Shown: piece by piece, positions 32,012 through 38,711 of the stretch
How positions within the stretch are numbered: position 1 is the first letter of the stretch
Layout: every line of letters starts with the position of its first letter
Virus record (IMG/VR): IMGVR_UViG_2687453529_000004
Strand: one strand, 5' to 3'
Source: a virus
Taxonomy: Duplodnaviria; Heunggongvirae; Uroviricota; Caudoviricetes
Length of the DNA stretch: 45,019 nucleotides
Notes under the pieces: model-generated
Seen by the model: only the letters and a program-made list of their open reading frames with translations
Database searches by the model: none
What the model was told of the DNA's origin: nothing
Program-made: the position numbers and the translations under genes

Positions 32012-32466
32012 TACGCCTCCTGCTTGTCGCGGAGCAGCTGGAACTCGCAGCTCTGCGGAATAGTCAGGTGGCAGCCAATATTCACCGCCCAGGCTTCAAC
32101 CTTACACAGGAAGACATACATCTCTCCGGTATCAAGATCGGAGGTATGGCGTAACGACTGGATAGTGGTGATATCACCGGTTACGACATCAACCAGGTCT
32201 TTGGTTTCATAACCGAGATATGTGTGTTTGAGAGCATCTTTTACCCAAGCTGGAGTAGCGAACGTTTTACCCCTGCTGATGAGGTATTCACTGATTTCGC
32301 TGTACCACATGTGGCTGAGTGCATTCTGGGAAAGACTGCGTTTCTCACGCCACGGTTTAAGCACCATGCGAAAGCATTTGCCCTCCTCCAGATAAGGCTG
32401 GATCTGCCGACCGATAGCGGTGAAGTTACCGCGATGTAATTTGATGCCATCTTGTGGGAGATTCAC
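32011..32466 (-). CDS. ybcN: NinB/YbcN-like recombination protein
   Basis: 151 aa, DLP12 ybcN-like. Confidence 0.7.
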
Positions 32467-32653
32467 GCTTCACCTCCGCAGAGGTCAAACGCTGGATACA
32501 ATATATCGCAGGTGCATTTCTGCATCTGTGGAGGGAGAAGAGAGTTTGGATTGTGTGTGCGCATAAACGTCCCCGTTTAGCGCAGAAGTCACCGGAGTTG
32601 TTCAGGCTCCGATGACATGATTATGGCGAGTTGATTATCGCAAATCAAAGGTT

Positions 32654-33010
32654 TTAATTGTGCTTTATTCCTTCAAGCGTTGCCTTCATACCAACCAAAG
32701 AAATGTTTAGCTCTCCAACTTTCTCAGGGCTATATAATTCAGAATGAAGCCAATATTCTGATTTATCTAAACATCTTTTAGCCAGCTCTCGATCAAAGTC
32801 TACGACTTGGGAAGACGCTTCATACCAAAGTCTATAAAGTTTTTCTTCTTCGTTTGGGTTATTAGGCTCACCACGTTTTAATTTTTCAGTATATAAAATT
32901 GTTGAATAAATCGCAGGAGTTAATCCAGTGATTGCCCTCTGCCGCAGATCGGATTTGTTTGTTATCCACCCCAACAGACGATCTCCCATCCATGTGATAA
33001 TTGTATCCAT
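32654..33010 (-). CDS. Hypothetical protein (118 aa)
   Basis: ORF with GAAGGG RBS-like sequence 8 nt upstream; no family recognised. Confidence 0.4.
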   Translation of the reverse strand: MDTIITWMGDRLLGWITNKSDLRQRAITGLTPAIYSTILYTEKLKRGEPNNPNEEEKLYRLWYEASSQVVDFDRELAKRCLDKSEYWLHSELYSPEKVGELNISLVGMKATLEGIKHN

Positions 33011-33471
33011 GCTTTAGCCCTTCTTAGTAAATAGTGTGTAGGGCGACTGAAGGACCGAGTTTATGCTTTTTCGCATTGCTTTCAGTTAGTACACCGGTAT
33101 CGCACCGGAAACAATCCTACGGCAAATTGGTTGTCTGACCTCTCGGTTTTTCGTGCATTAACCGATACCCACTACAGTCTCGGCGAAAGCTGCACACCCC
33201 CAGGGTGTACTGGTAGCACTCGGCACAGCCTAGCACGCCACTTTCTTCTCACTATCCAGTCTAATTTTATCCCCTAGTCAGACACTCAGATGTAGTGCTC
33301 CGCAGCGGCATGCGGGGGAATACAAAAACTCGGACAAAATTGGGCCCTCCTTTTTGAATCACTCGCGGGGATGTAGTTATTAATACATGGAAAAAGATCT
33401 GTTTTCAAATCCAACATTATATGGTTTCAATACCACGGGGTGGCTATGTGTTTCTCATTGTTAATTGGAAT
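33011..33471 (-). other. ORF-free, hairpin-rich segment (candidate ncRNA, leader or decayed gene)
   Basis: No ORF of 60 aa or more in any frame; GC-rich inverted repeats; minus-strand promoter-like TTGAAA-16-TATTAA at ~33381-33408. Confidence 0.3.
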
Positions 33472-33795
33472 CTACTGTAATCGATCCGAACGTAAATGCG
33501 GCAAAACTCGACTCCACTTATCATCCTGCCACGGCCGGAATTTTACATGTGCCGTTTCTCTGGCAAGGATTGCCTGTGCCTTATTGAGTATCTGGGGATA
33601 TTCTTGCTCGATAGAAGTGAAGCGACCAGCTTCACGATGCTCCGCAACCTGAAGAAGAGGAGTAACGTTCTGGTAGGTAATTAACATCACATTCCCTGCT
33701 CGCCATAACCAGGCGAGTGTGCAAAGTTCGTTATCAGTGAATTGTTTTGTGATTGGGTATTGTTGAACTGCTAGAACGAGAACGCCAGCATCCAT
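33472..33795 (-). CDS. Hypothetical protein (107 aa)
   Basis: ORF only; no family recognised. Confidence 0.4.
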   Translation of the reverse strand: MDAGVLVLAVQQYPITKQFTDNELCTLAWLWRAGNVMLITYQNVTPLLQVAEHREAGRFTSIEQEYPQILNKAQAILARETAHVKFRPWQDDKWSRVLPHLRSDRLQ

Positions 33796-33906
33796 TGGCA
33801 GTCTCTATAGTAAAACCATAGCTCAGGACGCTTCGTTCAGGATAGATAATTTTATTGTACTTACCTAACTTTCTTACTATAGCACGGTTGAAAAAGTGAT
33901 TATTAC

Positions 33907-35433
33907 TCAAAAATAAACCTCACCATCAACCATATATTTGAGAGTACTTATCGCCTGCTGGGCGGATATTGTTTTCATTAAAGGATAGTGTTTAAAAACA
34001 ATGCCATTCATAAAATAGATATCACAGGTTTTATTATCTGTATTGATTATGATTTTTTCGAATGTTTTATAGGCAAGTGTACGACATAGCTCTCGCCCAT
34101 TTTTACTGGTTAAGTCAATAGCATGAAAATCACCAAGTGAACTCACCGCTTTACTCTTCAAAGTTTTTAATGATACAGAAGCCCTTCGTAATTCCTTATC
34201 TAATACTCTGATTTTTTCTGCTATAGCGGTAACTTCAGGCGCAACAGATAATGCAGCAATTAAATTATTAATTTTCATCTGGAGCTCAATAATTTTCAAC
34301 TCTAAAGTTTCATTAGCATCTTTCTTGTTTTCAACTGGTTGGATTTTACTACAATTAAAAAGCAACTCATTAATGATATTATAATCAACCAAATCTCTCT
34401 TTATTGATGGCCTGTCACATCGATGCAGTCTTCTCATCGGACAAACATAATAGCCATGCAAACTTCCAGATACCGCATGAACAATCATGGTATTACCACA
34501 AGCCTCGCACTTCATAACTGTTCGAAGTAGATTTATCAACATAGGATTTTTGCTACTATTGCTAATACCAAAAGGTGCCAACCGAATTTCCTGTACAGCG
34601 TAAAACAAATCATCTGATATGACTCTGGGATAATAGCCAGCGATTTCACTTATTCCTTTACCTCTTGCACGATATGAAGGTACGCATATACCTATCAGAG
34701 CTTTATTCGCTAATAATTTTTCAATTACAGAAGGTCCCCATGCACTTTCTTTTCCTGAGAAATTCTTTACAGCATGATCATTTAAATACTTGGCTATTGC
34801 ATTCAATGAGCGCCTTTCCATCCTGAGTTTAAAAATTAGCTCAATAGTTTTCACCCTGTCGGGGTCTGGAACAAAAGCCGTTCTTTTGTCATCTAAGGAG
34901 AGCCATCTCGGACAAGACGCCGTCATAATCGTACCTGATTCCAGTGCATCCTGCCGTTTTTTCTTCCATGATAATTTAACCCGACTTGACTTTATCTCGC
35001 TTTCTTCATTTGCCCTTTGTGCTATAAGTATGGCTTTTATTAATGAATATGGCTCATTCAAAGAGTCAATATTATAGACTGTATTGTCGCAAAGAGTTAT
35101 AACATCAATACCGTGATTCAAAATCAATTTCAGACGTTCAATCGCTTCACCGACTTTTTCTCTTGAAAGTCTGTCCAGACTTTCAACTAACAATGTAGTT
35201 CCTGGCAATATATAACCATGCTCTATAGCATCTAAAAATTCCGAAAAAGCTCCTGATTGTGCATGCTTTCCTTTGAATGCACTTAATCCTAAATCTTCAT
35301 ATGTTATGGTATCAAGATAATAATCACTATTTACCTTTAACCATTCAGCAATAAGTCTTCTCTGTCGGTTTAATGAGTCGCCAGACATCTGACCTGGTGA
35401 TGAAAATCGCATATATGCTATGGCTTTTTTCAT
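33907..35433 (-). CDS. ybcK: Large serine recombinase (YbcK-like)
   Basis: 508 aa; N-terminal resolvase catalytic domain (YMRFSSPGQ... Ser nucleophile), C-terminal recombinase/zinc-ribbon/coiled-coil; matches recalled DLP12 YbcK. Confidence 0.85.
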   Translation of the reverse strand: MKKAIAYMRFSSPGQMSGDSLNRQRRLIAEWLKVNSDYYLDTITYEDLGLSAFKGKHAQSGAFSEFLDAIEHGYILPGTTLLVESLDRLSREKVGEAIERLKLILNHGIDVITLCDNTVYNIDSLNEPYSLIKAILIAQRANEESEIKSSRVKLSWKKKRQDALESGTIMTASCPRWLSLDDKRTAFVPDPDRVKTIELIFKLRMERRSLNAIAKYLNDHAVKNFSGKESAWGPSVIEKLLANKALIGICVPSYRARGKGISEIAGYYPRVISDDLFYAVQEIRLAPFGISNSSKNPMLINLLRTVMKCEACGNTMIVHAVSGSLHGYYVCPMRRLHRCDRPSIKRDLVDYNIINELLFNCSKIQPVENKKDANETLELKIIELQMKINNLIAALSVAPEVTAIAEKIRVLDKELRRASVSLKTLKSKAVSSLGDFHAIDLTSKNGRELCRTLAYKTFEKIIINTDNKTCDIYFMNGIVFKHYPLMKTISAQQAISTLKYMVDGEVYF

Positions 35434-35689: not shown

Positions 35690-36022
35690 TTAATGTGGTG
35701 TGCTTCGTGACAATAAATTAATAACCAACACACCGGCACAAATCAACATCATGCCTATAATGGCTGGCAGGTCCAGCCGTTGGCCGAAAAGTCCCCATGA
35801 CAGTAAGCTAATCAGGACAATACCGACTCCTGACCAGATAGCATAAGCAATCCCTGTAGGAATATAAGCCAGCGTCTGAGCTAATAACCAGAATGATGCA
35901 CAATAACAAATAATTGTACCAACAGATGGCCATAACCGTGTAAAACCTTCTGAAAACTTCATTAAGGTTGTACCAATGACCTCTGCAAGTATTGCACCAC
36001 CAAGATAAATATAAGGGTTCAT
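35690..36022 (-). CDS. emrE: Small multidrug resistance efflux transporter EmrE
   Basis: 110 aa from MNPYIYLGGAILAEVIGTT; four TM segments, conserved Glu14; matches recalled EmrE. Confidence 0.85.
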   Translation of the reverse strand: MNPYIYLGGAILAEVIGTTLMKFSEGFTRLWPSVGTIICYCASFWLLAQTLAYIPTGIAYAIWSGVGIVLISLLSWGLFGQRLDLPAIIGMMLICAGVLVINLLSRSTPH

Positions 36023-38642: not shown

Positions 38643-38711
38643 AATTGACTCCTTTAGTTTGAATTGACTGTTAAGTTGATTGCTTATTGTTAAAGAGCGT
38701 GAAATGGAAAT

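Follow-up and report, generated by a model that had tools for sequence, protein, structure and literature searches.

RNAs that are at once large and strongly constrained are usually ribozymes, riboswitches, ribonucleoprotein scaffolds or RNA-only assemblies such as ROOL and GOLLD. In the lambdoid-phage literature, on the other hand, the term moron designates an independent promoter-gene-terminator unit inserted between phage genes. The present work concerns a structured non-coding RNA (ncRNA) of 334 nucleotides (nt), encoded on the minus strand of the virus record IMGVR_UViG_2687453529_000004 (hereafter the window, meaning the whole stretch of 45,019 nt), which is an entire lambdoid prophage, located at the Escherichia coli DLP12 site and extending from intD to appY. 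By analogy, the closest known things in kind would be ROOL and GOLLD, whose kissing loops, supported by covariation, turned out to bridge copies of the RNA and many of whose GOLLD members exceed 800 nt (PMC12286853). In layout, it would be nearest to phage morons, to the leaders of riboswitches and to abortive-infection pairs of an RNA with a protein, for instance RCd22-AbiF, which shows the order promoter, RNA, terminator, protein and whose RNA acts in cis as well as in trans (PMC12373285).

The RNA occupies a gap between two small genes of the early-right operon, and a structured ncRNA was one of several explanations that the first-pass annotation had offered for this gap. This explanation is borne out by conservation and covariation, by G-U pairs that are strand-specific, and by the presence of a promoter and a terminator, and we are highly confident that the gap is a real structured RNA gene. 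The transcript is predicted to be about 335-355 nt long, to fold into two domains with some 99 base pairs (bp) and to be read from the minus strand under its own sigma-70-type promoter. Since the testable features of specific named families were not found in it, we filed it as a new RNA class; the newness is that of a class, not of a mechanism. The gap and the parts of the RNA are listed below, RNA position i corresponding to window position 33375 - i.

33011-33471: gap of 461 bp between the open reading frames (ORFs) of 107 and 118 amino acids (aa).
33041-33374, minus strand: structured ncRNA core, 334 nt.
33269-33372, minus strand: 5' domain (RNA 3-106), with the closing helix AUCCCC/GGGGAU, a bent hairpin arm (9-63) and a hairpin (68-92).
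33045-33261, minus strand: 3' domain (RNA 114-330), helices 7-17.
33292-33297, minus strand: first arm of the kissing loop (RNA 78-83, CACUAC).
33170-33175, minus strand: second arm of the kissing loop (RNA 200-205, GUAGUG), in the loop of hairpin 191-214.
33277-33282 and 33134-33139, minus strand: candidate second inter-domain pairing, UCUGAC (RNA 93-98) with GUCAGA (RNA 236-241).

BLAST located the gap sequence in 159 of the 5426 complete E. coli genomes and the whole 1.3-kb island in 98, while the gene with the P22AR_C domain (the 107-aa ORF) occurred, without the gap sequence, in many more E. coli genomes. These unequal counts imply that the 107-aa ORF, the RNA and the 118-aa ORF are not one unit; the three parts, whose co-occurrence the first-pass annotation had proposed to check by BLASTN, turned out to be separable. 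In about 59 E. coli genomes the copy was 95-99% identical to that of the window. Carriers include ST131, ST648 and ECONIH1-type strains and E. coli FDAARGOS_497, whose element lies at NZ_CP033850.1 2920587-2920920 on the plus strand of that record. Elsewhere, the element was present at about 66 IMG/VR loci, on 26 metagenome contigs (26 of the 26 loci found in the metagenome scan were true copies) and in only four deposited phages, Turner, IdasGreatGrand, Kp4856-1 and Kp4862-1. The IMG/VR scans used exact patterns of four different invariant blocks, each of which retrieved essentially the same loci; one candidate copy (L069) was discarded as a chance match. The three of these patterns used after the first reached no more distant relatives in IMG/VR, one of them adding a single fragment (L084), the search for distant relatives having consisted of exact-word scans only. 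When the species representatives of GTDB were scanned with GAGAGGTCAGACAACCAA, the 10 loci obtained were all chance matches of 18-22 nt outside the context of the element, and no copy was found among the PLSDB plasmids.

Conservation in homologues, whose absence had been set in advance as a reason to give up the idea, was evident: across lineages the core kept 78-82% nucleotide identity to the window copy while the flanking genes changed. Hosts at this level of identity comprised E. coli, the Klebsiella phage Kp4856-1 and contigs of Enterobacter and Obesumbacterium; the copies from Obesumbacterium proteus and Enterobacter bugandensis were found through the contexts of homologues of the 118-aa protein. 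A diverged copy (78-83% identical) was shared by an E. coli prophage (L005) and by Kp4856-1 (L006), where both neighbours are different. In the RNA alignment, 60% of the columns were invariant. In one IMG/VR copy (L049, from ~3370) the last ~30 nt of the RNA, starting at ~306 inside the GAAAAA hairpin, were replaced by unrelated sequence; this is a recombination breakpoint inside the element, and the copy is probably inactivated.

The secondary structure was built from the variants in three layers. RNAalifold on 23 variants gave 82 pairs, of which 13 showed compensatory changes; scanning all columns against all for covariation contributed the loop-loop contact 78-83/200-205 and the short helix 125-127/323-325; and the final structure, curated by hand, comprised 99 pairs in 17 helices over 27 variants. 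It was compared with a slid control, in which each 3' partner is moved by 1-3 columns and which corrects for relatedness, and with 500 column shuffles, which do not. In the 99-pair structure 96.2% of the cells were paired, versus 36-45% in the slid control; pairs with changes on both sides numbered 23 of 99, versus 2-6; and the covariation score was 0.241, versus 0.045-0.060. None of the 500 column shuffles matched the observed values (an earlier version with 88 pairs was also scored). Compensatory pairs thus exceed what relatedness would give, as is expected of structured ncRNAs in general, and the test of covariation across homologues suggested in the first-pass annotation came out in favour of the RNA.

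Within the 5' domain, helices 1-5 were 96-100% paired, with compensatory changes at 30/41 and 75/86. In the 3' domain, a long-range helix (114-118/326-330) followed by 125-127/323-325 encloses a multi-branch core with helices at 130-190, 191-214 and 228-321, and double changes were found in helices 8, 9, 10, 11, 12, 13 and 16. The two domains are joined by a kissing contact of 6 bp, in which the loop of hairpin 68-92 is one of the partners. All cells of this contact were paired (100%), in three co-varying versions, CACUAC/GUAGUG, CGCAAC/GUUGCG and CACCAC/GUGGUG; by variant, pair 79/204 was AU in 17 and GC in 10, and pair 81/202 was UA in 14, AU in 10 and CG in 3, while one metagenome variant had a U-G wobble at one of the pairs. 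The hexamers UCUGAC (93-98) and GUCAGA (236-241) are perfectly complementary and invariant in 33 of 33 variants, and could form a second contact between the domains, on which their very invariance leaves covariation silent. An apparent covariation of 165-167 with 284-286 was set aside as linkage between lineages.

Three inverted repeats had been singled out in the gap from the letters alone, and two of them survived as hairpins supported by covariation: ACACCC-CCA-GGGTGT (33194-33208), which is hairpin 167-181 of the RNA, and CCGGT-ATCGC-ACCGG (33094-33108), which is hairpin 267-281. The third, CCGCA-GCGGCA-TGCGG (33300-33315), is there in the sequence but was not kept as a pair, its bases being used by helices 9-11/61-63 and 68-76/85-92.

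Alternations of G-U with G-C or A-U pairs were frequent in the helices (pair 116/328, for example, was UG in 16 and CG in 10), and since these alternations are strand-specific, they assign the RNA to the minus strand. The alignment was also turned into a covariance model, R1, which matched the window once, at 33041-33374 (minus strand, 391.6 bits; the E-values of this model are rough), and matched nothing in 22 control loci. The variable columns fell on the three codon phases as 44/46/45, that is, without 3-nt periodicity; the indels of the RNA alignment were of 1 and 2 nt, and no reading frame was conserved between lineages. Nucleotide conservation was 80-82% in the RNA versus 71-75% in the adjoining 118-aa gene. 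We conclude that the element is under selection as RNA, and not as protein or as a DNA site.

The same data bear on the proposal that the gap is decayed coding sequence, either the pseudogenised middle of a once-continuous gene of ~380 aa or the remains of another accessory gene. Such decay would agree with the truncation of the adjoining 107-aa ORF itself, with the protein-coding cargo held by the same site in related prophages, and with a 108-aa ORF open on the opposite strand in L005. The phase counts, the 1- and 2-nt indels and the lack of a frame kept between lineages speak against it, as does the combination of 60% invariant columns with changes that are nevertheless compensatory in helices. 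Moreover, the 107-aa ORF stops at the natural end of the Ant-like family, being the C-terminus of another gene, and we found no homologue with one intact ORF spanning the element, the finding by which the first-pass annotation would have recognized a pseudogene. We give decay practically no chance of being the right explanation.

A site acting at the DNA level, such as a recombination site for YbcK or a replication or packaging signal with its hairpins in DNA, could be imagined from the 508-aa serine recombinase gene lying ~530 bp upstream and from the richness of the region in inverted repeats. Nevertheless, ybcK was found only in window-type loci and was absent from most carriers of the element, ybcK occurs without the element in DLP12 of the K-12 type and in loci like L002, pairing maintained through G-U is strand-specific and would be meaningless for duplex DNA, and the promoter and terminator frame the element exactly. 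A DNA site is, in our judgement, very improbable. The idea of an intron-like insertion found no support: the element lies outside any gene, has its own promoter and terminator and matches no intron of Rfam.

The Rfam 15 collection comprises 4227 models, including group I and group II introns, RNase P, tmRNA, 6S, riboswitches, ROOL, GOLLD, OLE, raiA, HEARO, abiF, ToxI, C4 and prophage small RNAs (sRNAs). In the family scan, which had been suggested beforehand, the 401-nt window element gave no match at E <=10, and the 4.5 kb around it gave none at E <=1; two diverged variants had chance matches only, with E >3 and scores far below gathering. The sole riboswitch match was preQ1-II with an E of 3.6, at chance level. 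Literature searches by keyword, protein accession and sequence string returned nothing on the element, and a preprint on Pas sRNA was dismissed as concerning unrelated small RNAs. When the RNA was compared with the rest of the prophage, four short matches with complementarity of at least 12 nt were found, about the number expected by chance, one of them in a variable part of the RNA. At window 32156-32167 the complement of the ybcN coding strand carries GACTGGATAGTG, identical to RNA 114-125; this 12-nt complementarity to the ybcN mRNA is probably meaningless, because about two such matches are expected by chance.

Upstream and downstream of the core, the following signals were identified in the window.

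33403-33408, minus strand: -35 hexamer TTGAAA, read from the sequence.
33379-33387, minus strand: -10 region TGTATTAAT, extended -10-like, with TATTAA (33380-33385) or ATTAAT.
33011-33040, minus strand: spacer between the RNA core and the 118-aa gene, with the Shine-Dalgarno-like AAGAAGGG and no terminator.

A sigma70-like promoter on the minus strand (TTGAAA/TATTAA) had already been pointed out in the first-pass annotation; it is there and its position is conserved in every lineage, although the spacer is of 17 nt and not of 16. The -10 of the window can alternatively be read as TGnATTAAT, and a generic promoter scan did not call the window site. In all lineages a -35 (TTGAAA, TTGTAT, TTGAAT or TTGATA) was found at the same distance from the RNA start, followed after ~17 nt by a -10 (TTTAAT, TTAAAT, ATTAAT or TCTAAT) that ends 7-8 nt before the first conserved base of the RNA, the A of AUCCCCGCGAG at ~33372. 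The sequence upstream of the RNA start is not alignable between lineages, yet the -35 and -10 positions are kept; an A-tract is often present farther upstream. In the E. coli lineage only, an imperfect palindrome, TGAAAACAGATCTTTTTCCA, at 33388-33407 overlaps the -35 and the spacer; it is centred on AGATCT, includes a Dam GATC site, and could be an operator or a methylation-sensitive site.

Most lineages outside E. coli have a canonical intrinsic terminator close behind the core, with a stem starting within ~15 nt (L006, L026, L056, L057, L062, L063, L066-L068, L070, L072, L073, L107, L111, L113 and L129); examples are CCGCC-UCAU-GGCGG followed by U7 and GCCACC-GAAA-GGUGG followed by U6. The terminator was absent from all lineages in which the 118-aa gene follows, where the core ends 30 nt before the ATG, and in the window no terminator-like site was found on the minus strand between the RNA and this gene. 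The lack of a terminator makes the RNA also the 5' leader of the 118-aa mRNA in the window lineage, whose transcript should run on into this gene. The long leader suggested earlier for the 118-aa gene is thus physically there in this lineage, its regulatory role being putative. The RNA also precedes other genes: unrelated ones, a truncated 118-aa gene and, directly, ninB-type genes.

The RNA is a module of the lambdoid early-right operon, located between the replication genes and the nin region, and its neighbours are swapped freely. In the window this operon is read from the minus strand and consists, in order, of a cro-like gene, YdaT, O, P, a ren-like gene, emrE, ylcJ, ybcK, the 107-aa ORF, the gap, the 118-aa ORF, ybcN, ninE, ybcO, rusA, ylcG and Q. 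The genes closest to the RNA are:

33907-35433, minus strand: serine recombinase gene ybcK, 508 aa, ~530 bp upstream of the RNA element.
33472-33795, minus strand: 107-aa ORF, Ant-like antirepressor remnant.
32654-33010, minus strand: 118-aa ORF, WP_000379700, PHROG 12412.

The two small ORFs have exactly the coordinates given in the first-pass annotation, and the gap of ~460 bp that it had described as free of ORFs of 60 aa or more measures 461 bp, the longest ORFs within it being of 48, 43, 39 and 34 aa; a 70-aa ORF on the plus strand (33440-33652) merely begins at its edge. The 107-aa ORF, which had previously not been placed in any family, matches the Pfam family P22_AR_C (PF10548; 57.9 bits against a cutoff of 22.4, E 1.1e-15) as well as the Ant families of PHROG. 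Over 98 aa it has 93% identity to an Ant-like protein of 249 aa (L010, residues 152-249), and it ends at the natural stop of that family; with residues 152-249 as its only equivalent, it does not contain the N-terminal domain of the Ant-like architecture. The ORF is therefore what is left of an Ant-like antirepressor gene after truncation at its 5' end, and lies outside the RNA unit.

The 118-aa ORF, in turn, is still without a place in any described family. Its protein family is small (21 clusters, PHROG 12412) and restricted to Enterobacterales. AlphaFold predicted a four-helix bundle for it, with a predicted local distance difference test score (pLDDT) of 79.8, for which Foldseek found no significant match in PDB or BFVD (best E 0.29), and neither this nor the other downstream proteins were named by Pfam, PHROG, PADLOC or NCBIfam. 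Two homologues with 51% identity occur without the RNA; one of them (P0016, locus L087) comes after a gene like that of DNA polymerase III theta, near an integrase. In the examined loci of the 95-99% copy type (for example L003, 3074-3274), a deletion of ~138 bp cuts the 118-aa gene to 60-66 aa, and the RNA beside this cut gene is 98% identical, with few changes that mostly keep pairing (U140->C, C172->U).

Across lineages the genes downstream of the RNA encode the 118-aa protein, a 178-aa protein with two transmembrane helices (2-TM), proteins of 176/183 aa, a pair of 95 and 162 aa, a 177-aa protein or a DUF1367 NinB-like protein, and those upstream encode Ant-like, VasI/TagO-like, dATP/dGTP pyrophosphohydrolase or theta-like proteins. 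Because both sides vary, the RNA is a module of its own in a cargo-exchange region and no fixed partner of any protein, YbcK included.

The commonest downstream partner was the 178-aa 2-TM protein (MNEAWAAITAG...), with a transmembrane helix at the N-terminus and another at the C-terminus, whose gene comes directly after the RNA terminator in L068, L066, L072, L056, L063, L107, L111 and L129. Its homologues at 51%, 42% and 38% identity occur without the RNA. The 38%-identical relative, from Citrobacter koseri (P0043), is named in UniRef as a SLATT (SMODS and SLOG-associating 2TM) effector, a name left unconfirmed for the 2-TM protein by Pfam and NCBIfam, in which no SLATT profile matched at E <=1. 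In L119 (5704-6237) the partner is the 177-aa protein starting with MKNIIIDSNAWNFLFD, whose N-terminus looks PIN-like by eye; it had no Pfam match, and no terminator precedes its gene. The 176/183-aa protein (L006, 3394-3945, in Kp4856-1) contains RLRHNLLH, an Rx4H motif of the HEPN-RNase kind; it matched no family, and a sequence search of PDB with the 176-aa protein was empty. In L057 a regular nin gene directly follows the RNA and its terminator.

DLP12-type prophages have a cargo-exchange hotspot that extends from the P22AR_C gene (or ren/P) to ybcN (window 32467-33900). In other E. coli (L002, 2024-2806; L004, 1898-2694; and L003 were compared) its cargo is a 260-aa hypothetical protein, a HEPN-domain protein with a 133-aa partner, or a VasI/TagO-like lipoprotein, and in K-12 it is ybcL/ybcM according to the first-pass annotation. 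RNA-less homologues of the 118-aa (L087) and 2-TM (L098, L103) proteins were encoded directly after a theta-like gene (PF06440) in other lambdoid prophages, which suggests a second hotspot, by that gene, exchanging the same accessory genes; in L119 the RNA itself follows a theta-like gene. The multidrug efflux gene emrE (35690-36022) and the large serine recombinase gene ybcK (33907-35433) are carried in the early-right operon of this apparently intact prophage; Turner and IdasGreatGrand, both isolated as phages, show the same arrangement. On the minus strand, at 38687-38699, CGCTCTTTAACAA forms a perfect boxA of the rrn type just downstream of the cro-like gene, that is, at the expected position of nutR; no lambda-like boxB hairpin adjoins it. 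No tRNA or tmRNA gene was found in the whole window using ARAGORN.

As to the way in which the RNA acts, we lean slightly towards an autonomous, trans-acting RNA rather than a cis switch. The element would be an "RNA moron", composed of a promoter, an RNA and usually a terminator. The RNA would be made constitutively and independently of pR, probably in the lysogen too, and would work in trans as a folded molecule, binding a protein, a ligand or its own copies through its invariant junctions and loops; the terminator, where present, would mainly keep the RNA promoter from reading into the nin genes and Q. We infer this from the autonomy of the RNA with respect to its neighbours, its closed 5' and 3' helices, the lack of a visible co-varying antiterminator and its persistence beside a broken 118-aa gene.

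Several observations weigh against the picture of an autonomous structured RNA. The single-sequence fold of the window copy, with a minimum free energy of -106.6 kcal/mol and a z of -0.45 relative to shuffles, is no better than chance, so that the significance of the fold comes from the comparison of homologues only. The variants represent about six recombined lineages, and the independent compensatory events are consequently modest in number, fewer than the cell counts. The promoter, start site and terminator are predictions made from sequence only. In addition, the RNA is always directly upstream of a gene on the same strand; all homologues of the 118-aa protein with at least 69% identity and a fetched context have it upstream, as functional coupling would also predict; its retention beside the truncated 118-aa gene may only mean recent divergence, given the 98% identity; and the ribosome-binding site of the 2-TM gene comes only ~25 nt after the terminator, which leaves no space for a separate promoter and is the layout of a leader or attenuator.

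The latter facts are also those on which a cis-regulatory sensor would be built, the main rival explanation, which we find possible but doubtful. The RNA would sit between a constitutive promoter and an accessory gene, and a signal (a metabolite, a protein or a factor of an infecting phage) would set the transcription past the terminator; in lineages without a terminator it would set the translation of the 118-aa protein instead. The order is indeed always promoter, 334-nt RNA, optional terminator, ribosome-binding site and gene, on one strand, and the 118-aa gene begins 30 nt past the core; as there is no room for a second promoter, the RNA promoter would be the only route to expression of the downstream gene in the lysogen. 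The existence of a transcriptional layout, with the terminator, and of a possible translational one recalls riboswitch classes. Alternative pairings do exist, CUCGG (316-320) having two possible CCGAG partners, 229-233 and 42-46 (inverted repeat I4), and the U-tract 47-51 being able to pair with the A-tracts 20-24 or 224-227, though none of these is conserved. Finally, some downstream genes look accessory or possibly toxic, such as those for the 2-TM protein and for the 176-aa protein with its RHNLLH motif.

Against a cis sensor, no antiterminator covarying with the terminator was seen. The terminator of L057 (stem GCCACC/GGUGG, versus CCGCC/GGCGG) differs from those of L056 and L068, two close relatives with a nearly identical RNA body, and no RNA change matching it was seen by eye, a comparison that was not made systematically. 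The pairing CCGAGUUU/AAACUCGG (42-49/313-320) was rejected, since G44->C breaks it without compensation in three lineages (L056, L057 and L085). Furthermore, the downstream families are unrelated to each other, their distant homologues work without the RNA at other positions of prophages, the RNA persists where the 118-aa gene beside it is truncated and also where it directly precedes a housekeeping nin gene, and the SLATT name is not backed by Pfam or NCBIfam.

A related possibility is a type III-like toxin-antitoxin or abortive-infection pair, in which the RNA neutralises the downstream protein and the terminator sets the ratio of RNA to protein. The gene order promoter, RNA, terminator, small protein is that of ToxIN and RCd22-AbiF (PMC12373285), the hotspot holds a HEPN-domain gene in other prophages, and the model of the 118-aa protein showed a weak Foldseek similarity to HEPN toxins (probability 0.2-0.35, E >=0.8). 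In contrast, the RNA has no tandem repeats (0 arrays with Tandem Repeats Finder at a minimum score of 30, and no repeat families), the Rfam models for abiF and ToxI were unmatched, no downstream protein matched a toxin family of PADLOC, Pfam or NCBIfam, and homologues of the proteins occur without the RNA. At least six unrelated proteins follow the same RNA, which makes a single specific interface unlikely. We consider a pair of this type quite improbable.

Returning to the trans-acting RNA, the covarying loop-loop contact may form between copies and lead to multimers, as in ROOL and GOLLD. A bolder proposal, to which we assign only a small chance, is that the RNA is the sensor of an RNA-only switch that arms swappable effectors (the 2-TM protein, the 118-aa bundle and others) upon a cue of infection. 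Candidates for this cue are a small molecule and a factor of the invading phage with a role in RNA binding, antitermination or nuclease action, upon whose detection the RNA would let RNA polymerase or ribosomes through to the effector. Were this so, the element would represent a riboswitch-like module of phage defence or exclusion without a protein sensor. More generally, its fixed place by a cargo hotspot, often upstream of small membrane or helical proteins, makes the RNA a candidate for the RNA-based control of accessory or defence genes of prophages.

When the locus is set against known systems, type III toxin-antitoxin and AbiF-RCd22 loci share with it the promoter, ncRNA, terminator and small promoterless protein gene within a prophage (PMC12373285). 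They differ in that the RNA described here is repeat-free and matches no abiF or ToxI model, its downstream proteins are unrelated to each other and to toxins, and RNA and proteins each occur without the other; neither the tandem-repeat antitoxin nor the known endoribonuclease toxin that define ToxIN, CptIN and TenpIN was found.

The lambda nut (boxA/boxB) and HK022 put sites are, like this element, RNAs of lambdoid early operons, acting on transcription through downstream terminators. The hairpin AUGC-GAAAAA-GCAU (RNA 299-312) superficially resembles boxB, but its loop has 6 nt and not 5, no boxA adjoins it, and the RNA, which is five times the size of put, comes with a promoter of its own. 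As a boxB this hairpin was rejected, having no second copy in the window and no adjacent boxA.

Riboswitches and attenuators also place a conserved folded RNA between a promoter and a terminator or a ribosome-binding site, and both layouts, with and without a terminator, are found here. Loop-loop contacts tie parts together in some riboswitch aptamers, such as those for lysine and purine. On the other hand, our RNA is much larger than most aptamers, the genes downstream of it share no pathway, no co-varying antiterminator was seen by eye and no meaningful riboswitch match was obtained from Rfam.

With morons the element shares a promoter of its own, a payload and a terminator, its location at a cargo-exchange junction and its presence in a minority of relatives (159 of 5426 E. 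coli genomes). It departs from them in that the payload is a structured RNA and not a protein, and in that the window lineage lacks the terminator and has a protein gene on the same transcript.

Finally, ROOL and GOLLD are, like this RNA, stand-alone structured ncRNAs of phages or prophages, multidomain, with pseudoknots or kissing loops recognized by covariation and without a known protein partner or function. No match in sequence or structure links them to it in Rfam, its 334 nt contrast with their size, and they come from phages of Gram-positive bacteria, whereas this RNA belongs to lambdoid phages of Enterobacterales, at a fixed place before the nin region and not near tRNA islands. Several genera of this order share the RNA, with 60% of its positions invariant, ~99 bp and a kissing loop between domains supported by covariation. 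Few genetic systems have been studied as closely as the lambda-like phages of E. coli, and an RNA of ~335 nt nevertheless appears to be undescribed in them. Unlike other orphan RNA classes, it comes with tractable hosts and isolated phages (Turner, IdasGreatGrand and Kp4856-1), in which its function can be directly tested.

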